Below are positions 15,700 through 41,607 of a stretch of 64,000 bases of DNA, in pieces. The position numbers and the translations under genes are program-made. The stretch's first letter is position 1. Every line of letters begins with the position of its first letter. The DNA comes from Candidatus Pacearchaeota archaeon (lineage in GTDB: Archaea > Nanobdellota > Nanobdellia > Pacearchaeales > JAPDKA01). Below the pieces are notes generated by a model. That model worked only from the letters and a program-made list of their open reading frames with translations. It did not search any database and had not been told where the DNA came from. The stretch lies in the NCBI GenBank assembly GCA_038840695.1, contig JAWBVE010000002.1:28170-92169 (forward strand). The letters are read 5' to 3'.

Positions 15700-15922
15700 A
15701 TTATTTTTCTATTATTTGTCATTTATTTGCAAAGAATTCTTCAGAAAACCCAAAGAATTCTTTTTTGTCTTTTTTATCTTTTTTTATTGCTAGTGGCTTT
15801 ATAAATCTATCTTTATAAATCTATTTATGCTTGCTTATTGCTACTTTGCTGCTCTGCCTATACTTCAAACTTTGCTTATATTTCAAAATAACATTTTTAA
15901 AAAAAGCATTTTTTTGTTATTT

Positions 15923-16495
15923 ATGAAAGAATTAATAGCTCTCTTCGATTTAGATGATACGCTTGTTGATTATGCAAAAGTTCTGCGCAAAGATTTAGAG
16001 AAAATGAGATGTCCTAGTGAGCCTAAAATTAAATATGTGCATGGCAAACTTCCACGCTATATTAAGAAAAGAATAAATTTTATCAAGAGCTCTGAGGACT
16101 GGTGGGCAAATCTCCCAAAAAGAAAGCTTGGTTGGGATATTTTGAAAGTAGTCAAAAAAATGGGATTTCGTGTGATTATTTTATCTAAGACCCCTGAAGT
16201 TGGTCCGCCGGGCTTTGGTGGTAAAAAGCGATGGATAGAAAAAAATCTAGGCAAGGAGACTGAAGTAATTTTAGCTTCAGATAAAGGACTAGTTTATGGA
16301 AAAGTATTAGTTGATGATAGCCCAATATTTATAAAAAGATGGCTTGCGCATAGGCCGCGCGGGCTTGTTATAATGCCTGCCACTTCTGAAAATAAAGGAT
16401 TTACTCATCCACAAGTGATAAGATATAATGGAAAAAATCTCGAGCAAATAAAAAAGGCTCTGAAAAAAGTTAAATTAGTTGCTTTAAAGCGATAG
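15923..16495 (+). CDS. HAD-family 5'(3')-deoxyribonucleotidase-like protein
   Basis: FDLDDTLVD motif I, KKRWIEK and DK...GKVLVDD motifs; ATG at 15923 preferred. Confidence 0.75.
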   Translation: MKELIALFDLDDTLVDYAKVLRKDLEKMRCPSEPKIKYVHGKLPRYIKKRINFIKSSEDWWANLPKRKLGWDILKVVKKMGFRVIILSKTPEVGPPGFGGKKRWIEKNLGKETEVILASDKGLVYGKVLVDDSPIFIKRWLAHRPRGLVIMPATSENKGFTHPQVIRYNGKNLEQIKKALKKVKLVALKR

Positions 16496-16519
16496 GCAAT
16501 TGCTAAGTTTTAATCTAAC

Positions 16520-17341
16520 ATGCTAGACTTTAAGCTTGCTGAATTCATTAATCAAATTAGTCCATCGATGAGCAGTGAAAGGCTAATTGAGCTAACTCTA
16601 GAATTTATTTATAAAAAATTTGGACTTGCTGGCTATAGCTTTAATTCAATGCTGAAGGGAAAAGCAACAAGCAAAAAAGCAATTTTCCTATTTAGTAATT
16701 TAATGCTTGAGTTATTCTTTAATAAAAAACCATCACACAAAGTGACTAAAGAGATTGAGCTCATTCTTGCGCTTGCAGAAAAATTTGTTGCTTATGCTGA
16801 AAGCCTTCAACGCTCGAAGAGCTTTGCAACAACAGATAGGCTGACTGGGCTTTTTAATAAGGCTTATTTTATGGGCATCTTAAAAAATATGAAAGCAAGG
16901 CGTGAGCACTTCTGCCTTGCTCTTCTCGATCTTGACAATTTTAAGCGATTTAATGATAGATTTGGTCATCAACAAGGAGATGCATTCTTGCAAGAGCTTG
17001 GCAAGATAATAAAAGAGAATCTAAAGCATGGCGAATTTGCATGTCGTTATGGTGGGGAGGAATTTTGCATAATTTTAAAAAGTAATCTAAAAGAGGCTTA
17101 TTTAAGAATTGATGCACTAAGAAAAAGGATAGCCAACATAAATGGAATTATAACTGCATCAATAGGCTTGGTTGAATCAAGTGATAGCTATGACTTTACT
17201 GAGATTGTGAGAAAAGCTGATGAATTAATGTATAGGGCAAAGAAAACTGGTAAAAATAAAGTTTGTATCGAAAGTAAGAAAGAGGGCTTTTTTTCGAGAA
17301 TAATTAGATTAATAAAAAATAAAAACTTAAAACAAACCTAA
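16520..17341 (+). CDS. GGDEF-domain diguanylate cyclase
   Basis: TDRLTGLFN, DLDNFKRFNDRFGH..GD, RYGGEEF, TASIG and AD..MY.AK..GKN motifs. Confidence 0.92.
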   Translation: MLDFKLAEFINQISPSMSSERLIELTLEFIYKKFGLAGYSFNSMLKGKATSKKAIFLFSNLMLELFFNKKPSHKVTKEIELILALAEKFVAYAESLQRSKSFATTDRLTGLFNKAYFMGILKNMKARREHFCLALLDLDNFKRFNDRFGHQQGDAFLQELGKIIKENLKHGEFACRYGGEEFCIILKSNLKEAYLRIDALRKRIANINGIITASIGLVESSDSYDFTEIVRKADELMYRAKKTGKNKVCIESKKEGFFSRIIRLIKNKNLKQT

Positions 17342-17919
17342 AAATTAAAACTTAGCTGTCTTTGTCGCTGGGCCTCTAGACTTTCTAAAATCTTATTAAT
17401 CAAATTGTAGAGATTCTTTTTTGTCTTTTCCATTTCTCCAGCTAGTAATTTGTACATTACATTATGAAGATCTTCTCTTATTCCTTTGTTGCATGTTGTT
17501 GGGCTAAATTCTGAGAATATCACACTGTATTTTGCCTCGTAAAGAATTGCCTTCTCGTGTAAAGGTAAACGACTATTCTTTGAACACTTTGGTGAGCAGA
17601 AGACATAATCAGTTGATACTCCTATATCTGCGATTGGCTTAGCCTTTCCACGGCTGCGACTACCATAGCCGCTATACCCATAGCTATACTCAACAACTAT
17701 GCTTAAATATTCTGCAGGATTGCAACAATTGGGATTTTGGCATTTTATCTTGCTTTCAAAATTATCTAAAGCATAAATTATCTTTTCCATTCGTGCCTTC
17801 CATCTATCTGGAAGATTTCCATTTTCATAAAGCCACCTAAAGCTTGGATAGTCAGTAACTGCGAGTTGCTCGAGAGATTTTCCTCGCCACTTACCAGATC
17901 TAAATTCTAAAATATCCAT
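17338..17919 (-). CDS. Hypothetical protein with N-terminal F..GKW.GK motif and Cys cluster
   Basis: 193-aa ORF; FRSGKWRGKSLEQL...SFRWL; CQNPNCC...FCSPKC. Confidence 0.6.
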   Translation of the reverse strand: MDILEFRSGKWRGKSLEQLAVTDYPSFRWLYENGNLPDRWKARMEKIIYALDNFESKIKCQNPNCCNPAEYLSIVVEYSYGYSGYGSRSRGKAKPIADIGVSTDYVFCSPKCSKNSRLPLHEKAILYEAKYSVIFSEFSPTTCNKGIREDLHNVMYKLLAGEMEKTKKNLYNLINKILESLEAQRQRQLSFNF

Positions 17920-17991
17920 AATAAAAAATAGTTTTAAGATTTATAAATTTATCTTCTTTTAAGTGGCAAAAGCGAAAGCTGCAAATAAAGG

Positions 17992-18807
17992 CTATAGCTC
18001 AAGCTCATCAAGCTTTGTTCTGACTTTTTTATAGAGCTCATCAGTAATATGAGTATAAATCTGTGTTGTATCAAGGCTTTTATGGCCAAGCAGTACTTGG
18101 ATTGTTCTTATGTCAAGGCCAGATTCAAGCAAATGGGTTGCATAGCTATGCCTAAGCTTATGAGGAGTTACTTTTTTCCTTAGCCCCAGGCTTTTTGCAA
18201 GCTTGCTTAATATTTTTTGTATATTTCTTGCTGTTAGTGGCTTTTCCTTTGAAAATACATAAGCCCAGCCCTGTCTTGCTGAAAGCCATTCCTTAAGCTC
18301 CTCTCTAAGCTTTGAGGGCAAAAAAATACGCCTTTCTTTATTCCCCTTTCCTATAATGACTGCTTCACCCTTTTCAAGATCTAGTGCAGAAGGCTTCATG
18401 TTGACAAGTTCACTAACACGCATTCCAGTATAATAAAGCATCTTAATAATTAGTGCTGACTTCTTTGTTTTTGCAGCACTAATCATTTTGCTAATTTCAT
18501 CTCTGCTTAGCACTTCTGGAAGCCTTTCTGGCTTTTTTGGCCTTGCTATATTAGCCATTAGCTCCTTGCCAACAAGTCTTGAAGCAAAACGAACTGCTGC
18601 CATTGCCAAAATCATGGATGAATTTGACTTATCAGCCATACTTGCAAGCCATGCCTTAACATCATCCTCACTTATTTGCTCTGGCTCCTTTTTGCAAAAA
18701 TCGAGCAGCTTTGAAACAAAGTAAAGATAGTTTTTTATTGTAAGCTGGCTTTTCTTCTGTAGCTTAAGCTCTGTCTCAAGCTTTCTTAGGAATTCCTCTT
18801 TTTGCAT
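17992..18807 (-). CDS. xerA: XerA-like tyrosine recombinase
   Basis: N-terminal SAM-like domain; catalytic residues intact in TGMRVSEL, GKGNKER, HKLRHSYATH, LLGH and TTQIYT. Confidence 0.9.
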   Translation of the reverse strand: MQKEEFLRKLETELKLQKKSQLTIKNYLYFVSKLLDFCKKEPEQISEDDVKAWLASMADKSNSSMILAMAAVRFASRLVGKELMANIARPKKPERLPEVLSRDEISKMISAAKTKKSALIIKMLYYTGMRVSELVNMKPSALDLEKGEAVIIGKGNKERRIFLPSKLREELKEWLSARQGWAYVFSKEKPLTARNIQKILSKLAKSLGLRKKVTPHKLRHSYATHLLESGLDIRTIQVLLGHKSLDTTQIYTHITDELYKKVRTKLDELEL

Positions 18808-18870
18808 TCAATATAAAGCGAACTCTTTTTAAATTTTTTGAAAAGCCAAAACAAACATCAAGAACTTTCA

Positions 18871-18898
18871 TGTTCGTCTAATCTTTCTTATACGAACT
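18871..18898. other. dif-like Xer recombination site (11-6-11)
   Basis: TGTTCGTCTAA-TCTTTC-TTATACGAACT: inverted arms match at 9 of 11 positions, with TAA/TTA flanking a 6-bp spacer; about 65 bp upstream of xerA. Confidence 0.7.
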
Positions 18899-19477
18899 TT
18901 TCAAGCTCTTTTTACAGCTTCTTGCGGCTTGTTTTGGTATTTGCATGCTCGTCGTGCTCTGCTTGCAAAAATTTTTCAGCAAAAATTAAAAGTTTTAGCC
19001 TCTTTTAGCGACTTTGCTTGATTTTAGCTCTGCAATATGGCACTCTTCAAGATATTTTACTTGCTTGCCAATCACAAGGCCATGCTGCCACTCACTTTTT
19101 TCCGGCTACTTTCTAGCTACTGCTAGACTTCGTTTGTAGAGCTTTAGACCTACTACCAAACTTTTATTTCCAACTTCTTAAACCTTGGATCTTTCTTAAT
19201 TTCACTCACATCTAAACCTTGCGGCGCTATCCTTGCCTTACCTTGCCTTACATTGCAAACAAGAAATGTTGAGCTAGTTAAGTCAGTCATAGGGAGTGAT
19301 GTTATAATGAATAGATTTGCTGATTATTGACAAGGCAGGATAGCTTGCCGTTTAAGTCACTAGTAAGTGATAAAAAGGCTTTTTTCTTTATGTTAAAAGT
19401 TTTAAGCAAAGATTAAAAGTTTTTGCATCAACCGAAAAATTTTTATTCTTTTAAAATGAATATAATTATGTAAGAGG

Positions 19478-20653
19478 ATGGGCTTGAATATGGAAAAAGG
19501 ACTGGAAAAAGAGCTTGATAGAAGTGAACTTGAAAAAATACTTGAAAGCTATAGAAGGCTAGGAAGTATAAATAAAACTGTAAAGGAAGTTAGACACAGT
19601 TATCATACCCTTCAGAAATATTTTAAAGATGAGCTTGAAAAAATAAGAAAAGAAAGGCAGGAGGAAAAAGAGCAAAAAATTATTAATGCTTATAAAGAGC
19701 TTGGACAGATTAAGAAAGTAGCTAAATTGCTTAAAGTAGATAGGAAAACTGTAAGGAAAGTATTAAGAAAGCATGGAATTAAGATAAAGCGTTGGAGTGG
19801 TGCGCGTTCTCTAAGTAAGGAGGAGGTTGAAAAGATAATAAAAACCTATGCTGAATTAGGGAATACTAAAAAAACTGCTAAGGCCTTAGGCCATGCTCAA
19901 ATTACTGTAGCCAAATACTGTAGAGAGCACTTTGAGTTAAACAAGATAAATAAAGTGAGAAGAAAATATGATTGGGAAAAAATAAGGGAGCTATATTATA
20001 AATATGACAGGCCTAAGGATGCTGCAAGAGAAATTGGTTGCTCACCAAAAACTGTAAGAGAAGTTTGGCACAAGTTTGGGCTACATGTACAGAGAAAAAA
20101 GCCAAAAATTAATGAAACTGAAATTTATAATATAAAGAAAAGATATTTTAATGGAGAAGGCATAGTAAATATATCGCGTGATCTAAAAAGAAGGACAGAT
20201 GTAATTATGAAGTACCTTAATTGGACTCCTTTGAGTGAAGGTTTGATCTTTTGTTTTTATGATAATGGAGATAAAGTAAAGAAAAGCATAGAAACAGTCA
20301 CAAACATAATAGAAAAATATGCTGAATGCACAGAAAAAATTTATTCGGATAGGCCTGAGTATGAAAAATATTACAAGATTGCTAACGAGATTTTTCCAGG
20401 AAAATTTAAGGAAATACTAATCATTTCATTCAAAAAAAGAAGCGATGAGGGCTTGGAGGAAAGGATTGAGAGCTATATAAAATTCAGACAATTGTGCTCA
20501 GAAGTAATCAATTTTTTTGCACGAAACAACATACAACTTGAGCTTTTTACACAGGAAATTTCTAAAGCAACTTACTATACTCTCTTTCCTGAAGCATCTA
20601 AAACCTTTTATGAATTTGATCAAAAAGGTGAAGGTGTTGAGCAGAGCATTTAA
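19478..20653 (+). CDS. Tandem multi-HTH DNA-binding protein
   Basis: About five repeats of I...Y..LG.....A..L.....TV; unassigned C-terminal domain. Confidence 0.7.
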   Translation: MGLNMEKGLEKELDRSELEKILESYRRLGSINKTVKEVRHSYHTLQKYFKDELEKIRKERQEEKEQKIINAYKELGQIKKVAKLLKVDRKTVRKVLRKHGIKIKRWSGARSLSKEEVEKIIKTYAELGNTKKTAKALGHAQITVAKYCREHFELNKINKVRRKYDWEKIRELYYKYDRPKDAAREIGCSPKTVREVWHKFGLHVQRKKPKINETEIYNIKKRYFNGEGIVNISRDLKRRTDVIMKYLNWTPLSEGLIFCFYDNGDKVKKSIETVTNIIEKYAECTEKIYSDRPEYEKYYKIANEIFPGKFKEILIISFKKRSDEGLEERIESYIKFRQLCSEVINFFARNNIQLELFTQEISKATYYTLFPEASKTFYEFDQKGEGVEQSI

Positions 20654-20725
20654 ATTGCATTAAAAAGCATAAAAAATCATAAAAATTTTTAGTAAAATTT
20701 ATAAACAGAGATAATTTTTTATGTT

Positions 20726-21352
20726 ATGTTTTTTAATTTTTTCAAAAAAAGAAAACTTGAAAGCGAGATTGAAAAATTAAAGGAAGTAATGAAGAATTCT
20801 TTTTCAAATGTAAAGGATGATTTAAATAAAATTTCCAGTTGGATTTTTTATTTGAATGAAAAAGATAAAGATCTCGACGAGAAAATTAGCAAATTACAGG
20901 AAGAAATTGAAGAAATAAAAGAGCTGCTAGCCTTTTCGTCAGGGGCGTTTAAACAGGTGTTTAAACAGGTGTTTAAACACCAAACAGCTGTTGAAGGTGT
21001 TCAAACAGCTGTTCAAACAGGTGTTCAAACACCAAAAATTAATAAAAAATTAACAAAGTTAGCAACAAAAAATATAATTTTGGAAGGCTTAACATTAATG
21101 GAAAGAGCAATTTTGTGGGTATTGGCAAACACTGACTTAAAGCTAAGTTGTGAAGATATCGCAAGAGTGCTTGGAAAAAGTGAAAACACAATAAGAGGAC
21201 AACTAAATAGCCTTAAGTCAAAGTGGCCACAGCTAATAAATGAAATAATTGAAAAAAATGGAAAAAAGAGATATTATATTGATGAAAGAACAAAAGAGCT
21301 TATTTTTAAAATAACAAAGACAAAAATTAAAGCTAAAATAAAATTACGTTAA
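20726..21352 (+). CDS. Coiled-coil / repeat linker / C-terminal winged-helix protein
   Basis: N-terminal SF..VK.D coiled coil; C-terminal LT..ER.IL...LS..DIA..LGKS..TIRGQLN.L wHTH. Confidence 0.75.
   Translation: MFFNFFKKRKLESEIEKLKEVMKNSFSNVKDDLNKISSWIFYLNEKDKDLDEKISKLQEEIEEIKELLAFSSGAFKQVFKQVFKHQTAVEGVQTAVQTGVQTPKINKKLTKLATKNIILEGLTLMERAILWVLANTDLKLSCEDIARVLGKSENTIRGQLNSLKSKWPQLINEIIEKNGKKRYYIDERTKELIFKITKTKIKAKIKLR
20947..21034 (+). repeat. Two blocks of three 12-bp tandem repeats (consensus GTTYAAACAGST) with palindromic core
   Basis: Copies start at 20947, 20959, 20971 and 20999, 21011, 21023. Confidence 0.9.
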
Positions 21353-21705
21353 GCTAAGAGCCAAGAAGTCAAAAAAGTTAAAAAGCTAAGAACAAAAAAG
21401 TAAATTAAAGCGAATTTTTTAATGCAAAAAACAAAAAAGTGAGAGTTAAGTTTTAGAAGCTAAAAATAAAGAGCTAGAGAGCTAAATTAAAAAATAAATT
21501 TAAAACGAACTTTTTTGAATAAAAAATTAAAGCTACAAAGAGTAAGGCTGAGAGCAATGTCTACAAACTATGTAATTAAACGAACTTTTTGAGAGAAAAA
21601 AGCAAAAAGTGAGAATTAAGCAATTTGAAATGCTGAAAGAATTTTGAAGTATAAAGCAAGTTAAAATTTATTCGGTTAAAGGAAAAAATAGATACTAAGC
21701 ATTCT

Positions 21706-21807
21706 TTAGGCATTCTTTAAGCATCCATATTCTTCCATGTCCGCTTCTATTTTCTTATATCTTCTCTCTAGCTCTTGCTCAATTTTTTCATAGTCTGGCT
21801 TGCTCAT
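21706..21807 (-). CDS. Possible 33-aa peptide downstream of the wHTH gene
   Basis: Manual translation MSKPDYEKIEQELERRYKKIEADMEEYGCLKNA; starts 21 nt after the stop of 21829..22722. Confidence 0.35.
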   Translation of the reverse strand: MSKPDYEKIEQELERRYKKIEADMEEYGCLKNA

Positions 21808-21828
21808 TTTAGAGGCTGATTTATGAAT

Positions 21829-22722
21829 TTAGTCGAGCTGCTCAAGGGCTTCGAGGCTTGATATCTTTAATATTTCTCTCGGAATTGAAAGAAAAACTTC
21901 CTTGCTATGATAGCATTCTTTCTGAATTGGAATGCCTTTAAGAATTAGCCTATTTACAAGGTCTCTAACAGAACTTGGAGCAAGGCCTGTTTTCTCTGCA
22001 AGGGTTTTGTAGCTTATCTTTAAGCCTGCCTGCTGCATAGAATAGATAAGCACAAATATCTCAAATTCTTTCTTTGTTAAAGATTTAAAACGCCTTGCAA
22101 GGATTTTTTTATAATTATTAACCATATGCTCGATTTTTTCGAGCTCAGCTTTGTTTTCTTGCTCTTGTTGCTGAAGAGGGCCAAGGCTTTGTAAATGCTC
22201 TTGTTGTTCTTGTGACTGTTGCCCTCGCTGTTGTTGCTGCTGTGGCTGCTGTAGTTGTTGTGGTTGCAGCTGTTTCAATTGCTGTGACTCTTGCATTTCT
22301 TTAAAGGTTTTGGCTTGAATTTCAGAGTTTTGTTGGTTTTGTTGTATAGTGGAGATTGGCGAAAGGTTCGTTTTAATTTGACGTAGGATTGACGTAGATC
22401 TGTTGGAAATGTGTTGGAAATGTGTTGGAACCCCTTCATTTCCTTTGGAACGGCTGAAATAAGGCTTATTTCCTTCAATTTTTTCTTTATTTTGCATAGG
22501 AAATAAAGGTGTGTTGGAAATGTGTTGGAAATGTGTTGGAAATGTGTTGGAATTTTCCAACACATGTTTATACGAACTTTTCAGCATATTCTTAGCAATT
22601 TCTAGTTCCTTCTTTATAGTTTCTAAATCCCTTCGCATCATAAGAAGTTCATTAAAAATAAAATTAATATCTTGCTTCACAGCCGCAAAAGCTTTCTTTA
22701 TTTTTTCTTCTTCCTTTTCCAT
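21829..22722 (-). CDS. Coiled-coil / repeat and poly-Q linker / C-terminal winged-helix protein (candidate origin-associated factor)
   Basis: N-terminal AF..VKQD coiled coil; C-terminal LT.KE..IF..IY...SYK.LA.K..L..SSVRD.V..L..KG wHTH. Confidence 0.75.
   Translation of the reverse strand: MEKEEEKIKKAFAAVKQDINFIFNELLMMRRDLETIKKELEIAKNMLKSSYKHVLENSNTFPTHFQHISNTPLFPMQNKEKIEGNKPYFSRSKGNEGVPTHFQHISNRSTSILRQIKTNLSPISTIQQNQQNSEIQAKTFKEMQESQQLKQLQPQQLQQPQQQQQRGQQSQEQQEHLQSLGPLQQQEQENKAELEKIEHMVNNYKKILARRFKSLTKKEFEIFVLIYSMQQAGLKISYKTLAEKTGLAPSSVRDLVNRLILKGIPIQKECYHSKEVFLSIPREILKISSLEALEQLD
22378..22565. repeat. 11-bp iteron-like repeats (TGTTGGAAATG x3 and x4 plus one inverted copy; TTGACGTAG x2) flanking an inverted ORB-like pair
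   Basis: Copies at 22401, 22412, 22423; 22512, 22523, 22534, 22545; inverted TTCCAACACAT at 22555-22565. Confidence 0.9.
22430..22512. promoter_or_regulatory. Inverted ORB-like pair around a T-rich spacer (intragenic origin candidate)
   Basis: Minus strand 22430-22451 reads GTTCCAAAGGAAATGAAGGGGT; plus strand 22492-22512 reads TTGCATAGGAAATAAAGGTGT. Confidence 0.65.
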
Positions 22723-34739: not shown

Positions 34740-35492
34740 ATGGCAACAAATATTGCAATTTTTGACGGCGATGGTACACTTTGGAAATTTCCGAATGAAT
34801 TTGGAAGTTCATGGAGCTTAGTAGAAAAGATATTAAGTGACGAAGAACTTAGACTATGGAAAAAGCGAAGTAGAGAATTCCACGATAATTTTGAGCGGAG
34901 AAATGATAAAGAATATGAATCCTTTTTAGAAATTCAAGTTAAATTATTGCAAGGAAAGCCGTGCTTAGATTTAGAAAATGTAAAAATACCTTACAGAGAA
35001 GGTGCTAAGGAGCTCGTAGAAAGACTAAAGCCAAGTTATGATATCTACATCGTTAGTGCAGGATTTTATGATGTTGTTGAAAAAGCGGCAAGAGAACTTG
35101 GGGTAAAGCATATCTCAAATGAGATAGAAAGAAAAAATGGCTTTTATACTGGAAAAATAAAAAAAGTTGTAAGTCCTTTTAATAAATCATCTTTAATAAG
35201 ACAATTAATAACTAGTTATTCTAGTCAGACGAGCCAGCTCCTTCTTTTCTATGATGAATATGACTTTGATATTCAAAATTTTGAAGCTAACATTGGCAGC
35301 GTTGAGAGTATAAAAAAATTTTTGATTGTTGAGGATGAAAAAAGCAAACAAGAAAAGCAAGAAAGCAAGCAAGAGAAGCAAGAGCTTAGCAAACATAAAA
35401 AGATTCAAAGCCCCTCAAACTCCTTAAGCAGTTCTTGCTTTACTTTTGTAATAAATAAATTCAGCCAAGCATATGGCCATATATTTAGCTAA
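34740..35492 (+). CDS. HAD-IB phosphatase (SerB-like)
   Basis: FDGDGTL, IVSAGF and SNEIE...YTG.I...K motifs; motif IV degenerate. Confidence 0.7.
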   Translation: MATNIAIFDGDGTLWKFPNEFGSSWSLVEKILSDEELRLWKKRSREFHDNFERRNDKEYESFLEIQVKLLQGKPCLDLENVKIPYREGAKELVERLKPSYDIYIVSAGFYDVVEKAARELGVKHISNEIERKNGFYTGKIKKVVSPFNKSSLIRQLITSYSSQTSQLLLFYDEYDFDIQNFEANIGSVESIKKFLIVEDEKSKQEKQESKQEKQELSKHKKIQSPSNSLSSSCFTFVINKFSQAYGHIFS

Positions 35493-38400
35493 AATGAAAA
35501 AAATTGAGGAGCAATTTCAGAGCTATTTCCAAAGTATTAGAGAGAAAACAGAGATAGCATATGCTATAGCAAACGAGGCAAGAAAACAAGGCAAAGATCC
35601 TATGAAAAAAGTTGAGATACCTTTAACAGGTGATCTTGCAGAGAGAGCTTGTGGTCTTGTTTCTATTTTACATCCTCAACTTAAAGATGAGAAAATCGAA
35701 AAAAGAATTAGAGAGCTTGAAGCACAATATGGCTTTCTTGAGCTTGGAACAGCATTAAAGATAGCCGAAGAGATTGCAAAACAAAAGCATTGTAGATTTT
35801 CTTCTCATCTAGAAGCACTCGAGGCAGCCATAAGGTTAGGGATAGCTTATCTAACTCTTGGCGTTGTTTCAAGTCCAATCGAAGGCTTCATTAAGCTGGA
35901 GATAAAAAAGACTAAAAGTAATCAAGATTATCTTGCAGCTTATTTTGCAGGACCCATTAGGAGTGCAGGAGGCACCACAGCAGCTCTCTCAGTAATTATT
36001 ATAGATTATCTTAGGCAACTTTTTGGTTATGCTAGTTATGATGCCACAGAACAAGAAATTAAGAGAGCTATTACTGAAATTTATGATTATCATGAACGTG
36101 TTACAAATTTGCAATATTTACCATCAGAGACTGAAATCGCAACTATTATTGCAGGCTTACCTGTTCAGGTTGACGGTGAGCCAAGCGAAGAGATTGAAGT
36201 AAGTAATTACAAAGATCTTGAGCGAATAGGAACGAACAGAATTAGGAGTGGTTTTTGTTTAGTAATAGCGGAGGGCATAGCTGCTAAAGCAATGAAGCTA
36301 ATTAAAAAAATTTCTAAAGTGAGAGAGCAAGGGATAAAGCTCGATGGCTGGGATTTTTTGGCAAAGCTTCAAAGAAAAAAATTGAAGCAAGAGAAGCATG
36401 AAAAGCAAGAAAAACAAGCGAGAGAGGAACAAGCAAAGCAAGAAGAAAAACAAGAAGTAGAAGAGAAAATAGCACCTTCCTTTACTTACATTGAAGATAT
36501 CGTCGCAGGTAGGCCAATCTTTAGTTATCCTTCGAGGCCTGGAGGCTTTAGACTTCGTTATGGTAGAACACGAACAAGTGGCTATAGTGCAATGGCTATA
36601 AATCCAGCATTGATGTTTTGCATAGAGGATTTTCTAGCTATTGGAACACAACTAAGAACAGAGAGGCCAGGAAAATCGTGCAGTCTCGCAACATCAGATG
36701 TTCTCGAAGGACCGATTGTTAAACTTAAAGATGGAAGCGTCATAAAAATAAACGATGTTGAGACAGCTTTAAAGTATAAAGATAAAATTGAGCAAATAAT
36801 TTATTTAGGCGACTTACTTGTCAGCTATGGAGATTTTTTTAATAGAAATCATCCACTGATGCCTTCAGGCTATGTTGAGGAATGGTGGTGGTCAGAACTT
36901 AAAGAGAAGCTGGAAGAAATAATAAATAAAGAGAAAAAACTTGAAGAAATAAAAAAGGCACAGGAGTTACTTCAAATAGAAAAGTATTTTGGCTATTTTA
37001 ATATTTCTTTTAAACAAGCCGTCGAGCTTTCTTTACAATACAAGGTTCCTCTTTATCCTAAATTTATTTTTTTCTGGTCACAAATCGATTTAAAAAAATT
37101 GAATGAATTATTGAAGTGGATTAGCAGCAGTCATTTTACTCAAGAGCTCAACTTTGTTTTGCCTTATTTAAAGTCAAGGCGAGAGGAGCTTCAAGAAGCT
37201 AAGCAAGCTCTTGAACTTTTAGGAGTGGAGCATTTTGTTGGCATTGAAAGTATAGTGATTAAGGAAATAGAAGCGAAAGCATTTCTTCTAAATCTCGGCC
37301 TCTTGAGAGCGAGAGAGCTAGAAAAACTAGGAAGAGAAACAAGTGAAGAAACTGAAGAAACCAAAGGAAATGGAAAAATCAATATGATAGAAGAAGTGAA
37401 TAAGCTTATCAAGGAAAGGGCAAAGGAAACAGTAAAAATATTAGCAGAAATGTTAGCAGAAAAATCCAAGCCATCAGCAAAAGAAGTTCTTAAAATTATC
37501 AACAAGTTTTCAGAATTTGAGATTAGAGATAAAGCTGGCACATGGATTGGAGCAAGAATGGGAAGGCCAGAAAAAGCCAAGCCAAGAGTGCTTACGGGCC
37601 AGCCAAACGTGCTTTTTCCTGTTGGCGAAGAAGGAGGAAGGCTAAGAAGCTTTGAATCAGCAATCGAAAAGAAATTTATCAAGGCAGAGTTTTCTGTCTT
37701 TTATTGTCCAAAGTGCAAATCAGAGACCATTTACTTTATTTGTGAGAATTGTGGTAGTGAGACAGAGCAACGTTATTGGTGCAATGAATGCAATAAAAGC
37801 TATCAAAGCAATGTTTGTTCAGCACATGGTCTTCTAAAGCCTTATCGAAAGTGGAAAATAGATATTAATCATTATTTAGAAAAAGCCATAGAAATGCTCG
37901 GCCTAAGTAAGCAGGAGCTTCCTGCAATTATGAAAGGAGTCAGAGGCACGAGCTCGGAAAGCCATGTTCCAGAACATCTTGCAAAAGGCTTGCTTAGAGC
38001 AATATATAATTTGAATGTAAATAAGGATGGAACGATTAGATATGATGCAACAGAACTTCCTTTAACTCAATTTAGACCACGAGAAATTGGAACTTCTGTA
38101 GAAAAGCTAAGAGAACTCGGCTATAGCACAGATATTTATGGCAACGAATTAGTTAATGATGATCAACTAGTTGATATCATGCCTCAAGACATAATCTTGC
38201 CGGCATCAAGTCAAAGTCTTGATGAACCAGCAGACCAATTTTTGATGAGAGTTTCTAAGTTTATTGATGCATTATTAGTTAAATTTTATAAGTTAAAGCC
38301 TTTTTATAATGTAGAAAAAAGAGAAGATCTTATTGGGCATTTAGTTGTTTTTATAGCCCCACACAATGCAGCAGGAACTGTGGCGAGAATAATCGGCTTT

Positions 38401-39204
38401 AGCAATACGCAAGCCATTCTTGCTAGTCCTTTTTTACATGCAGCTGTTAGACGCGATTGTGATGGTGATGAGGCTGGCTTTATGTTATTGCTGGATGCCC
38501 TCTTAAATTTTTCTTTTAGTTATTTACCATCCCATCGCGGCTCTACACAGGATGTTCCAATAATAATAAACTCAACAATAAAACAAAATGAAGTTGATGA
38601 TATGGTCTTTGATATGGAAAGCACTTATCTTTTCCCGAGTCAATTTTATCACGCCACTTTAAGCTATAGTAGTCCTGAAAAAGTTAAAATCCCGCAGGTA
38701 AAGGATAAGCTCTCTCGTAAGGAGTCTTTTATAATTCCTTTCACTCATCCTACAAGTAGCATTGATATTGGCAATAAATGCTCAGCCTATAAAACTCTCT
38801 CAACTATGGAAGAAAAAGTGCAAAAGCAGATGGAAGTTGGAGAGAAAATAAGAGCTGTCGACGAGAGTGATCTTGCAACACTCATAATCACAAGACATTT
38901 TATTCGCGACATACGAGGCAATTTAAGAAAATTTTCTTCTCAGCAATTTAGATGTTCAAAATGTAATGAAAAATATAGAAGGCCTCCTCTTGCAGGAAAG
39001 TGCCTAAAGTGTAGCGGCCCAATTATTTTTACAATAGCCGAAGGCACAATTAGAAAATATCTTGAACCAGCAATTTCTTTAGCCAAAAAATATAATATAG
39101 CCCCTTATGTCAAGCAAAGTCTCGAGCTAATTGAGTCGAGCATTGATAGCATTTTTGGCAAGGAGCAAAGCAAACAAGAAAGCCTGCAAAAGTGGTTTAA
39201 ATAA
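35473..39204 (+). CDS. polC: DNA polymerase D large subunit DP2
   Basis: FAGPIRSAGGT, GGFRLRYGR, GARMGRPEKA, RRDCDGDE catalytic motif and Zn fingers; no intein evident. Confidence 0.97.
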   Translation: MAIYLAKMKKIEEQFQSYFQSIREKTEIAYAIANEARKQGKDPMKKVEIPLTGDLAERACGLVSILHPQLKDEKIEKRIRELEAQYGFLELGTALKIAEEIAKQKHCRFSSHLEALEAAIRLGIAYLTLGVVSSPIEGFIKLEIKKTKSNQDYLAAYFAGPIRSAGGTTAALSVIIIDYLRQLFGYASYDATEQEIKRAITEIYDYHERVTNLQYLPSETEIATIIAGLPVQVDGEPSEEIEVSNYKDLERIGTNRIRSGFCLVIAEGIAAKAMKLIKKISKVREQGIKLDGWDFLAKLQRKKLKQEKHEKQEKQAREEQAKQEEKQEVEEKIAPSFTYIEDIVAGRPIFSYPSRPGGFRLRYGRTRTSGYSAMAINPALMFCIEDFLAIGTQLRTERPGKSCSLATSDVLEGPIVKLKDGSVIKINDVETALKYKDKIEQIIYLGDLLVSYGDFFNRNHPLMPSGYVEEWWWSELKEKLEEIINKEKKLEEIKKAQELLQIEKYFGYFNISFKQAVELSLQYKVPLYPKFIFFWSQIDLKKLNELLKWISSSHFTQELNFVLPYLKSRREELQEAKQALELLGVEHFVGIESIVIKEIEAKAFLLNLGLLRARELEKLGRETSEETEETKGNGKINMIEEVNKLIKERAKETVKILAEMLAEKSKPSAKEVLKIINKFSEFEIRDKAGTWIGARMGRPEKAKPRVLTGQPNVLFPVGEEGGRLRSFESAIEKKFIKAEFSVFYCPKCKSETIYFICENCGSETEQRYWCNECNKSYQSNVCSAHGLLKPYRKWKIDINHYLEKAIEMLGLSKQELPAIMKGVRGTSSESHVPEHLAKGLLRAIYNLNVNKDGTIRYDATELPLTQFRPREIGTSVEKLRELGYSTDIYGNELVNDDQLVDIMPQDIILPASSQSLDEPADQFLMRVSKFIDALLVKFYKLKPFYNVEKREDLIGHLVVFIAPHNAAGTVARIIGFSNTQAILASPFLHAAVRRDCDGDEAGFMLLLDALLNFSFSYLPSHRGSTQDVPIIINSTIKQNEVDDMVFDMESTYLFPSQFYHATLSYSSPEKVKIPQVKDKLSRKESFIIPFTHPTSSIDIGNKCSAYKTLSTMEEKVQKQMEVGEKIRAVDESDLATLIITRHFIRDIRGNLRKFSSQQFRCSKCNEKYRRPPLAGKCLKCSGPIIFTIAEGTIRKYLEPAISLAKKYNIAPYVKQSLELIESSIDSIFGKEQSKQESLQKWFK

Positions 39205-39295
39205 AACTCGATGAAACTCGTCTTCCCTCTTCTTTCCAAGCGAAAAGTTTTTAAATAGTTGTTACTTTTAAATAGTATCCTTATTTTTTATTAAA

Positions 39296-40423
39296 ATGGG
39301 AGAAAAAATATTCAAAAAAATTGGCAAATATCTTGTACCTTATTTAGTTGCCTCTATGATTAATGGCGCCATTGTTAGCGATACTTATGCAAAACGAGCA
39401 AAAAACACAAAATTTGCAGAACAAGTGATGAAGGAAGCTAACACTTGGTACAACTTAAATCAAGATTATGTAGAGAAGTATCGTCTAAACTCATTTTTTC
39501 CAGCCTTTAGAAGAATGGAGGAATATCGTTCTTACATAGAGCGTGCAGCAAAGGAAAGTGGTTTAGATAAGTGCATATTGATGGGGCTAATAGCTGTTGA
39601 GTCTCAAGGAATATTACGTGCAAATTCATATGCTAAAGCTGGGGGGCCTATGCAATTGTTAGTAGGTTTTGCAAGAAAGCTCCGTATACCAATGACTAAA
39701 TGGGAAGACCGTAGGTATAGTGTAGATTCAATACCCCCAGCAGCAAAAAAGTTAGCAGAGCTTATTGAGGAATATGGCTTAGTTGACGCATTAATAGCTT
39801 ATAATGCCGGGGAAGATGATGCACAAGAAGTTGATAATATTGAAAAATGGAAACACAAGCGAAAATATATCCCTCGCCAAACAAAGGATTATGTTCCGAA
39901 AGTTATGGCAGCTATAAAAGCATGCAGGATTTATGAAGAGCAACGCAACAATAGCATAGTAAAAGTAAAGCCAGGAGATAATTTATTAAAAATTGTGGAA
40001 GAATGTGAAGAGAGAGGATTCGACGTGAATTTGCGTAAAATAAAGCAAATAAATCATATAGACAATCAAAACAAAATCTATGTTGGCCAGACAATTTATT
40101 GCAGTGGTGAATATAATAAAGACATATATGCTAATGCAAGAAATTATCGTGTTGCACGGGGTGACAATCTAGAAACGATAGCAAGGAAATTTGGAGTAAG
40201 TACTTATGATATAGTGAAGTTAAATCCACAGGTGATAGATTGGTCAATGCTTAAGCCAGGAATGGTTCTGAGAGTTCCAAAACAAAGAATCCAGGAGGCA
40301 AGTCAAATAAGGAATAAGCCAAGCACCAAAACAATCAAAAAATCAGCGCTAAATCAAAACCAACCCAAAAAAATCAAAACGCCACCTAGGCAAAGGCGCA
40401 GCGCGGCCTACTACAGAAGATAA
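39296..40423 (+). CDS. Lytic transglycosylase (SLT) with two LysM domains, MltD-like
   Basis: IAVES (catalytic Glu), AGGPMQL, AYNAG and TKDYVPK motifs; LysM VKPGDNL...IYVGQTI and YRVARGDNL...LKPGMVLRVP; N-terminal hydrophobic signal. Confidence 0.9.
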   Translation: MGEKIFKKIGKYLVPYLVASMINGAIVSDTYAKRAKNTKFAEQVMKEANTWYNLNQDYVEKYRLNSFFPAFRRMEEYRSYIERAAKESGLDKCILMGLIAVESQGILRANSYAKAGGPMQLLVGFARKLRIPMTKWEDRRYSVDSIPPAAKKLAELIEEYGLVDALIAYNAGEDDAQEVDNIEKWKHKRKYIPRQTKDYVPKVMAAIKACRIYEEQRNNSIVKVKPGDNLLKIVEECEERGFDVNLRKIKQINHIDNQNKIYVGQTIYCSGEYNKDIYANARNYRVARGDNLETIARKFGVSTYDIVKLNPQVIDWSMLKPGMVLRVPKQRIQEASQIRNKPSTKTIKKSALNQNQPKKIKTPPRQRRSAAYYRR

Positions 40424-41607
40424 TAGCCAAGCACAGGAAGCACTAGGCAGCCCATTAAATGTATTCTTCTGATCTCTTTAATGTTTGGTATTAAACCTAT
40501 AGCAAACGCTGTGGCAAGTACAAAAAGGCTGAACAAGCCAGAAATAGCTATGTTCATTGCCAAGACAAAACTAATTACGAAGAAGCATAGGAGAGAATAG
40601 TTTATTTTTGTTATGTATTTTGAGAAGAGCTTTGTTAATGCTAAGCAAAGAGGAACGCAAAGGCAACAAACAATTAATGAAACTGCAATCAGTAGCACTA
40701 AATCATTTAAGCTTATTTCTTTTAGGATTTGCTGGATTGCTACTCCCACACCACTTCTTGGCTTTGATATGAGTGTTGCTGTAACAAAACTAAAGAGCAT
40801 CACAATTGTATTAATACTGCCGACAAGAATAAGAAATTCTTTTGTATTTAGTCTGCCGAGCAAATCAGAGCCTATGATAGCTGCTTGGCCGGGTCCGACG
40901 GCTGGATAAAAAGAGACAAAGCTACTAGCAATGAGGCCTGCAGCTAAAGGCCTTACCTTTTCTCTAAACTTCAAAGGAATTTCTCTTGTATGTTGTGCTC
41001 GTAGTTTTACTTTATTTTTTATACTCAAAAATAAAAGTGGTAAACCAAAAAGACCAGAAAAAAGAGGTAAGAGGGGCTGGGAAATCACTTTGAGATTGAA
41101 TGTAAGAATGCCAAGTGAGCCAGACAATAAAAAGACAAGCAATGCTAAAAATATTTGCCTTTCTTTTAAAATTAATAAAGTGGAAAAAGCAAGAAGCACA
41201 AAAGGAACAGAAATCTTAATGCTAGGCCATGCAAGCGGAATAAGCAAAAACATTAAAGGCAAGAGTGCTAATGCAAGAAAAAAGCCATAGAAAGAGCCAA
41301 TAAGCGTTAGCTTTACTGCATAAAAGCCATAGCCTTTAAGCAGCAATCTATGACCTGGAAGCATTCCTAACGCACTATCATCATTTGGCGCGCCGAGAAA
41401 AATGCTTGGGATAAAATCAAGGAATGTATGAGTTATTGCCATTGCAGCAAGAAAGCAAGCAACTAGGAGAGGATTCTTTACACTTATGCTCATTGCAAGA
41501 GCAGCTATGAGATTTATATGTAAGCCAGGAATTAGTCCAGTAAAAATTCCTGCAAGAATGCCAAGAAAAGTGGCAAGCAGCAAAGTTAAAAATGAGCTTA
41601 GTAGCAT
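40411..41607 (-). CDS. TctA-family tripartite tricarboxylate transporter permease
   Basis: GIFTGLIPGLHIN, FIPSIFLGAP, LPGH and SGLFG motifs. Confidence 0.88.
   Translation of the reverse strand: MLLSSFLTLLLATFLGILAGIFTGLIPGLHINLIAALAMSISVKNPLLVACFLAAMAITHTFLDFIPSIFLGAPNDDSALGMLPGHRLLLKGYGFYAVKLTLIGSFYGFFLALALLPLMFLLIPLAWPSIKISVPFVLLAFSTLLILKERQIFLALLVFLLSGSLGILTFNLKVISQPLLPLFSGLFGLPLLFLSIKNKVKLRAQHTREIPLKFREKVRPLAAGLIASSFVSFYPAVGPGQAAIIGSDLLGRLNTKEFLILVGSINTIVMLFSFVTATLISKPRSGVGVAIQQILKEISLNDLVLLIAVSLIVCCLCVPLCLALTKLFSKYITKINYSLLCFFVISFVLAMNIAISGLFSLFVLATAFAIGLIPNIKEIRRIHLMGCLVLPVLGYYLL

Follow-up and report, generated by a model that had tools for sequence, protein, structure and literature searches.

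Why would an archaeon in whose genome no murein-building genes were found carry an intact gene for a murein-cleaving enzyme? The question is raised by an open reading frame (ORF) of 375 residues at 39296..40423 on the forward strand of the window, by which we mean the whole stretch of 64,000 nucleotides analyzed here. Its product combines an SLT catalytic domain with two LysM domains. The genome that contains the window (G000) is of the Pacearchaeota-type DPANN kind and comprises 644,521 bp in 10 contigs (84.8% complete, 0.9% contaminated). We consider it likely that this archaeon possesses here a genuine and intact gene, and that the product is an exported, MltD-like lytic transglycosylase acting on the walls of neighboring bacteria.

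The catalytic domain (39533..39868, forward strand; residues 80-191) matches the SLT profile PF01464 at 49.7 bits, the cut-off being 21.3 (E 3.1e-13), which places the protein in this family. Enzymes of SLT family 1 (PF01464, CAZy GH23) cleave their substrate non-hydrolytically and release 1,6-anhydro-N-acetylmuramic acid (1,6-anhydro-MurNAc) products. The family is recognized by a catalytic glutamate within an E-S pair and by the motifs G-x-M-Q and A-Y-N-x-G. All three are located in the archaeal protein, as E102-S103, G117-P-M-Q120 and A168-Y-N-A-G172 (followed by E173). In an alignment of 43 sequences, E102, S103, G117 and G172 are invariant, while Q120, Y169 and N170 are nearly so. From the motif alignment, the predicted catalytic residue is Glu102, encoded by the GAG codon at 39599-39601 (forward strand). 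A six-frame scan identified the two LysM domains on the same strand at 39962..40096 and 40145..40279, with individual scores of 42 and 33 bits. Together they reach 68.2 bits against PF01476 in two stretches (cut-off 20.9, E 5.7e-19), and the second aligns with those of LytE and a Thermus endopeptidase. The initial annotation, made from the letters alone, had described intact SLT motifs and two LysM domains; Pfam and the alignment confirm both.

The predicted structure agrees with this assignment. An AlphaFold model built on an alignment of relatives has a mean predicted local distance difference test score (pLDDT) of 88.1 and a predicted TM-score (pTM) of 0.78, and only the last ~40 residues are poorly modeled. 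As modeled, the protein adopts a lysozyme-like alpha-helical fold. The top Foldseek match is a Pseudomonas MltD chain with two LysM domains (8rhf, E 2.6e-11), and further matches comprise Slt, MltE (TM-score by target 0.61-0.64), MltC and goose-type (g-type) lysozymes. In addition, the sole match of a phmmer search with the SLT part against the sequences of the PDB is Pseudomonas MltD (8rhe, E 0.0016). MltD of Pseudomonas aeruginosa (8rhe, 8rhf, 8rhi) and of Escherichia coli likewise consists of an SLT domain followed by C-terminal LysM repeats. Its ES, AYNAGE and P-x-ET-x-DYVPK stretches line up with the archaeal protein, although identity in the structural alignment is only 18-21%.

The two ends of the protein lie outside these domains. 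By hydropathy and sequence, residues 1-32 (39296..39391, forward strand) correspond to the signal-like N-terminus that had been proposed: the start is rich in K, residues 12-27 or so are hydrophobic, with an 11-residue Kyte-Doolittle maximum of 2.0, and T-Y-A precedes K33. In the AlphaFold model, residues 2-54 form a single long helix. Judged from these features, the protein is probably exported to the cell surface or beyond it. The opposite end is a basic tail of 46 residues (330-375; 40283..40423, forward strand) with 14 K/R and 1 D/E. It is probably disordered: pLDDT falls below 50 in segments 334-336, 340-357 and 371-375, and the means of 10-residue blocks lie between 45 and 57 from about residue 331. 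The tail is missing from the ortholog of the same genus, P0026, which in the alignment ends after the second LysM domain, and the final 13 nucleotides of its coding region overlap the 3′ end of a convergent gene of the TctA family. The tail may date from the arrival of the gene at its present site.

Wall-cutting enzymes are encoded elsewhere in the same genome as well. The inventory comprises three SLT ORFs, two M23 peptidases and one NlpC/P60 protein, and LysM is found in the gene at 39296-40423 only. A second SLT gene and a divergent M23 peptidase of 268 residues are located on contig C4 (21291-23429; locus L001, 778-2916). This SLT protein (412 residues) combines a signal-like N-terminus with a degenerate LysM-like stretch and an acidic/basic low-complexity tail. 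The NlpC/P60 protein (385 residues) and the second M23 peptidase (268 residues) form a divergent pair on contig C7 (4210-6242; locus L127, 1711-3743). The third SLT protein, on contig C6 (16808-18061; locus L003, 1000-2286), begins with a membrane-anchor-like segment. Pfam matches it in two stretches because a Cys-rich insert of ~50 residues splits the domain. A related arrangement was observed in another genome of the same order (G014; locus L015, 1039-2232), where SLT and M23 peptidase domains are fused in one protein of 397 residues.

On the side of wall synthesis, profile scans of this ~85% complete genome did not find Mur_ligase_M, a penicillin-binding protein (PBP) transpeptidase, Amidase_2, Amidase_3 or AnmK. 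The first proposal, that an archaeon here encodes an MltD-like murein enzyme, is borne out. Six genes for cutting walls, against none found for building them, make the walls of other cells the most plausible target. Remodeling of its own wall, as open to MltD, would be impossible for the archaeal enzyme since no murein genes were found in its host, and for the same reason the substrate should be the wall of bacterial neighbors.

The following course of events would be consistent with these data. A Sec-type N-terminus would direct export of the protein, either to the cell surface or beyond, and the two LysM domains would hold glycan strands containing N-acetylglucosamine (GlcNAc). In bacterial peptidoglycan, the SLT domain, with Glu102 as single acid catalyst, would cut the MurNAc-beta-1,4-GlcNAc bond; the wall so attacked would be that of neighboring bacteria, whether host, prey or debris. 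In this process the enzyme would act alongside the two other SLT proteins, the two M23 endopeptidases and the NlpC/P60 protein. From gene content, a bacterial host or prey for this archaeon is plausible, and the five other wall-hydrolase genes strengthen the idea.

Several points weigh against this reading, in whole or in part. The archaeal protein scores 63.2 bits against the NCBIfam model of MltD equivalogs (NF008050), for which the cut-off is 508. Furthermore, MltD is a lipoprotein, and the lipobox cysteine of MltD has no counterpart here: the first 45 residues contain no cysteine, which rules out a lipobox. Because the equivalog score lies far below the cut-off and the lipobox is missing, the protein is not a true MltD; it is MltD-like in architecture and fold, yet not an MltD equivalog. 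The N-terminus may be a cleaved signal or a membrane anchor, as both would fit the one-helix model. Results of the profile scans are no proof of absence, since the genome is 85% complete, and the failure to find AnmK (anhydro-MurNAc kinase) leaves a role in muropeptide recycling without support.

Codon usage adds a further difficulty. The frequent CGT arginine codons pointed out in the initial annotation are real: the 29 arginine codons of the gene comprise 8 CGT, 3 CGC, 2 CGA, 1 CGG, 9 AGA and 6 AGG. The CGT share of 28% compares with 4.5% genome-wide (371 of 8183 arginine codons in 556 crude ORFs; binomial p 3e-5) and ranks second among the 365 ORFs with at least 10 arginines. The ortholog P0026 has no CGT among 10 arginine codons, and the two paralogs have 1 of 24 and 3 of 15. 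High expression was considered as the cause and rejected: seven Pfam-confirmed translation genes on contig C8 (10 CGT among 109 arginine codons) exceed the genome share but stay far below the 28% of the SLT gene; an eighth ORF, at first taken for ribosomal, had no match in Pfam and was not counted. None of these comparisons explains the CGT excess. Lastly, LysM domains are also able to bind chitin and pseudomurein-type material, according to a survey of enzymes from archaea that hydrolyze peptidoglycan (Strock et al. 2025; PMC12352652).

This last property leads to the possibility of a target other than murein, such as chitin or chito-oligosaccharides, another GlcNAc polymer, or the envelope glycan of the archaeon itself or of an archaeal host. 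The LysM matches include plant chitin receptors, and the title of 8rhi describes a crystal of the best-matching MltD with chitotetraose bound. However, the catalytic motifs are conserved with murein transglycosylases, and the co-occurring M23 and NlpC/P60 peptidases cut peptide stems or cross-links, not chitin. Pseudomurein is also a poor fit on chemical grounds: formation of a 1,6-anhydro product requires the free C6 hydroxyl of MurNAc, and talosaminuronic acid, its counterpart in pseudomurein, has none. Taken together, we regard a non-murein target as unlikely.

A second alternative holds that the gene was imported recently and directly from a bacterium, with the CGT-rich arginine codons as the signature of the donor. 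The CGT excess, the position of the gene within an insertion relative to two related genomes (G001 and G002) and the fact that the nearest large protein-atlas clusters are all bacterial SLT-LysM proteins speak in its favor. The closest relatives of the protein point elsewhere. A full HMMER search against 1.84 billion representatives returned 7386 matches at E<=0.001, most of them driven by LysM, and the only close one is P0026 (322 residues, 45% identity, E 1e-65), a Pacearchaeota ortholog; bacterial SLT domains reach only 28-37%. A word-indexed protein search found, besides the protein itself, only LysM-driven matches and distant SLT-LysM matches, the latter with identities up to 28% where more than half of the query is covered; the ortholog emerged only from the full HMMER search. 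P0026 is named ‘lytic transglycosylase [Candidatus Pacearchaeota archaeon]’ by NCBI and belongs to G001, a genome of the same genus. Like the target it has an SLT domain, two LysM domains and a signal-like N-terminus, the 45% identity extending over residues 13-329; in contrast to the target, it lacks the basic tail and CGT codons.

The position of the ortholog also differs. P0026 is encoded beside a HerA-like ATPase on a 486-kb contig and not beside the DP2 and TctA genes that flank the target. This region is syntenic with contig C4 of the window's genome, where the second SLT gene and its M23 peptidase adjoin the same HerA-like ATPase. In G001, a separate ortholog of the C4 SLT gene (371 residues) occupies the corresponding position. 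In these C4-type paralogs, Pfam recognizes SLT only, and their degenerate LysM-like stretch can be aligned to the second LysM domain of the target.

To place the gene, SLT domains matching at least 90 positions of a hidden Markov model (HMM) made from five Pacearchaeota sequences were collected, which gave 189 distinct domains. The tree has 94 rows: all 22 from Pacearchaeota genomes, the best 50 of 77 named bacterial domains and the best 22 of 89 unlabelled representatives. The named bacterial records come from a scan with a single peptide pattern and are for this reason a biased sample. Supports are given as IQ-TREE ultrafast bootstrap / SH-aLRT. The target groups with P0026 (100/91), then with the C4 pair (100/91), with P0033 and P0044 (100/91) and with P0136 (100/88). 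Addition of P0144 and a sequence from G144 completes a clade of nine rows with support 99/88. Its labels are G000, G001, G144 and a Woesearchaeota-named cluster, as the 90% cluster of P0144 contains proteins which NCBI names Candidatus Woesearchaeota archaeon; P0033, P0044 and P0136 carry no organism label. Pfam finds SLT and LysM together in the target, P0026 and four further members (P0033, P0044, P0136 and P0144, each with one LysM). On this sequence evidence, the gene belongs to an archaeal (DPANN) SLT-LysM clade.

At the next node the nine rows are joined, with support of only 77/74, to a mixed group of 53 rows, in which Bdellovibrionota, Chlorobiota, Ignavibacteriota, Bacteroidota, unlabelled rows and some Pacearchaeota are found. 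The target clade is nested in no bacterial phylum, and among bacteria the 94-row tree resolves no donor phylum. Bdellovibrionota provided the best bacterial tblastn matches (32-37%, from the single-peptide-pattern scan) and were considered as the donor, but they are not sister to the target clade. The SLT rows of the order outside the target's family (17 rows) require at least three changes on the starred branches, from which it follows that several SLT lineages coexist in the order.

Composition and upstream signals are likewise at odds with a recent bacterial origin. Synonymous codon use of the gene is ordinary overall (z -0.82), and its GC content of 36.9% is close to the 34-36% of the contigs. 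Upstream of the ATG, at a distance of 20-47 nucleotides, TTTTAAATAGT occurs twice on the forward strand (39249-39259 and 39266-39276), and a TTTTTAAA-like element is found at a similar distance upstream of three other SLT genes of G000 and G001. By comparison with the archaeal TATA consensus, the TTTTAAATAGT pair would be candidate TATA-box-like promoter elements. We therefore judge recent direct import from a bacterium to be quite improbable.

The horizontal acquisition proposed in the initial annotation thus stands in part. The insertion at the locus and an ultimately bacterial-type ancestry are in its favor, whereas a recent bacterial transfer is contradicted by the closest kin, which are archaeal (clade 99/88); the phylogeny of the SLT domain that was to decide the matter places the target in a supported archaeal clade and leaves the donor phylum unresolved. 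In our reading this is an old bacterial-type gene, long resident in DPANN and duplicated in this genus, of which one copy sits at a new site.

The new site is well defined by its neighbors. Directly upstream lies the gene for the large subunit of archaeal DNA polymerase II, DP2 (35473..39204, forward strand), with its PolC_DP2 N-terminal, central and catalytic domains in Pfam; this neighbor makes the archaeal context real. Downstream, the convergent gene at 40411..41607 (reverse strand) encodes a membrane protein of the TctA family (Pfam TctA, E 4.6e-51), with identities of 68%, 59% and 42% to its relatives in G001, G002 and G003. In G001 the stops of the DP2 and TctA genes are 26 nucleotides apart and in G002, of the same family, they overlap by 4 nucleotides, whereas 1.2 kb separate them in the window's genome. 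Since DP2 and TctA are adjacent in both relatives, the segment at 39205..40410 (forward strand), about one gene and its upstream region, is a lineage-specific insertion. Beyond TctA, the genes for an OB-fold protein and TatD are kept in G001, and G002 keeps the OB-fold gene followed by a different one. A repeat scan around the inserted segment revealed no meaningful direct or inverted flanking repeats and no sign of a transposon, and a scan for sigma-70 promoters and terminators gave results at or near shuffle level. The gene would have reached this site after the split from the sister species, either by relocation or by transfer from another DPANN-type source.

It might also be asked whether the gene still has a function or is the decaying relic of an old transfer, as the low-complexity C-terminal tail could suggest. 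Against this, the reading frame is uninterrupted, none of the catalytic and LysM signatures has been lost although identity to the ortholog is only 45%, the structural model is confident and the family is retained and duplicated in genomes of 0.6 Mb. A functionless relic is accordingly very hard to credit.

That the gene, being of a type typical of bacteria and phages, reached archaeal DNA only through an assembly or binning artefact can be dismissed: it lies mid-contig in its own genome (contig C2, 103,959 bp, at 67465-68592), its composition is native, its ortholog resides in the 486-kb archaeal contig, and four runs from two studies cover it. The stretch is present in eight metagenome runs from these two studies, labelled hot springs metagenome. 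The junctions were checked on contigs, not read pairs, of four runs (X4, X5 and X7 from the second study, X6 from the first). The junction of DP2 with the SLT gene is bridged by X5 record 9 (38300-39342), X6 record 17 (38300-39364) and X4 record 4 (39175-39621), and that of the SLT gene with TctA by X4 record 5 (39684-41370), X5 record 15 (39768-41442) and X7 record 28 (39811-40791); none of the contigs listed covers the full 3.6 kb by itself. As contigs of the second study bridge both junctions, the misassembly that had been considered from the outset is not borne out. One X6 contig joins 39044 to 41381 and omits the end of DP2, the SLT gene and most of TctA. This joint was discarded, as its shorter side of 23 letters is below the reliability bar; it probably represents another organism or a chance match.

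The presence of an SLT domain in an archaeon is not exceptional. PF01464 is detected in 98 of 201 sampled genomes of the order (the window's included); counted by genus the figure is 59 of 100, and among high-quality genomes it is 36 of 76. Across the phylum, at E<=1e-5, it is detected in 148 of 301 sampled genomes and 122 of 225 genera, a tally in which the window's own genome and G437, an unpublished one, are counted. SLT is thus present in roughly half of the genomes sampled from the order and from the phylum. Many of the matches in the order are located in open frames of 2000-3000 residues. The specific SLT-LysM protein is rarer, with matches in 6 of 41 relatives if the window's genome is counted among them.

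The idea that murein transglycosylases point to a bacterial host or prey of DPANN is already published (PMC8204110, PMC9723730, PMC11537232, PMC12352652). Castelle et al. 2021 (PMC8204110) propose that DPANN murein transglycosylases help the cells attach to the walls of bacteria; for previous sightings they refer to Rinke 2013 and Castelle 2015. On the same basis, predatory Woesearchaeota are proposed by Vigneron et al. 2022 (PMC9723730). A GH23 murein transglycosylase is encoded by many Pacearchaeota genomes (ISME J 2024; PMC11537232), and three such metagenome-assembled genomes are described in mBio 2024 (PMC10936187). The large transglycosylases of these four papers (PMC8204110, PMC9723730, PMC10936187, PMC11537232) share with the target the archaeal groups, the catalytic domain and the proposed role in the binding and degradation of bacterial walls. 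They are very large, up to ~3000 residues, in agreement with the long open frames seen in the order sample, whereas the target has 375 and belongs to a separate supported clade; nor does it fit the description of fam00969 in PMC8204110 as large extracellular proteins.

Closer in design are the modular archaeal peptidoglycan hydrolases surveyed by Strock et al. 2025 (PMC12352652), who describe them as prominent in Nanoarchaeota. Like the target, they combine a catalytic with a wall-binding domain, usually carry a signal peptide and occur in murein-less archaea, and the domain list of that survey (supplement file 6) includes SLT and LysM. In that study, two such enzymes from the haloarchaeon Halogranum salarium kill a bacterium, M23 homologs are described in Halobacteriales, and the enzymes assayed are haloarchaeal, none of them DPANN. 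A term search of seven of its supplement files returned neither ‘Pacearchaeales’ nor ‘Nanoarchaeota’ and no row for this lineage. Within the text accessible to our literature search, no paper singles out the small SLT-LysM clade.

As a genomic observation, the gene therefore adds little: its class is common in the group, already annotated publicly and already interpreted in this way. The initial interpretation holds in part and is not a new one. What this analysis contributes is the insertion, specific to this lineage, that separates DP2 from TctA, together with the C4 paralogy, the set of six hydrolase genes and the CGT excess. To our knowledge, experiments have yet to demonstrate a bacterial host or prey for any DPANN archaeon, and the genomic case that some of them have one is built mainly on genes for murein cleavage. 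Expression and assay should be much less demanding for a small SLT-LysM protein than for the published DPANN proteins of 2000-3000 residues. Small and confidently modeled, this one offers a practical entry point for the host or prey hypothesis.

A bolder proposal, which we put forward tentatively and consider possible rather than probable, is that this hot-spring Pacearchaeon is a cross-domain episymbiont or micro-predator equipped with a six-gene kit (three SLT, two M23, one NlpC/P60), into which the CGT-rich SLT-LysM gene was recently swapped from another DPANN cell or a mobile element. The CGT excess is compatible with arrival from such a donor or element but is no proof of it. If the proposal is true, wall-attack genes would make up an arms-race module that passes between DPANN archaea and turns over among them.

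Elsewhere in the window, a run of genes rich in CGN arginine codons was observed at 15827-22722, with an integrase, a GGDEF protein, HTH proteins and ORFs without a family. The integrase is a tyrosine recombinase (17992-18807, reverse strand), and the GGDEF protein carries a diguanylate cyclase domain (16520-17341, forward strand; E 4.5e-36). The run may be an integrated element, and a GGDEF protein in a DPANN archaeon may merit attention of its own.

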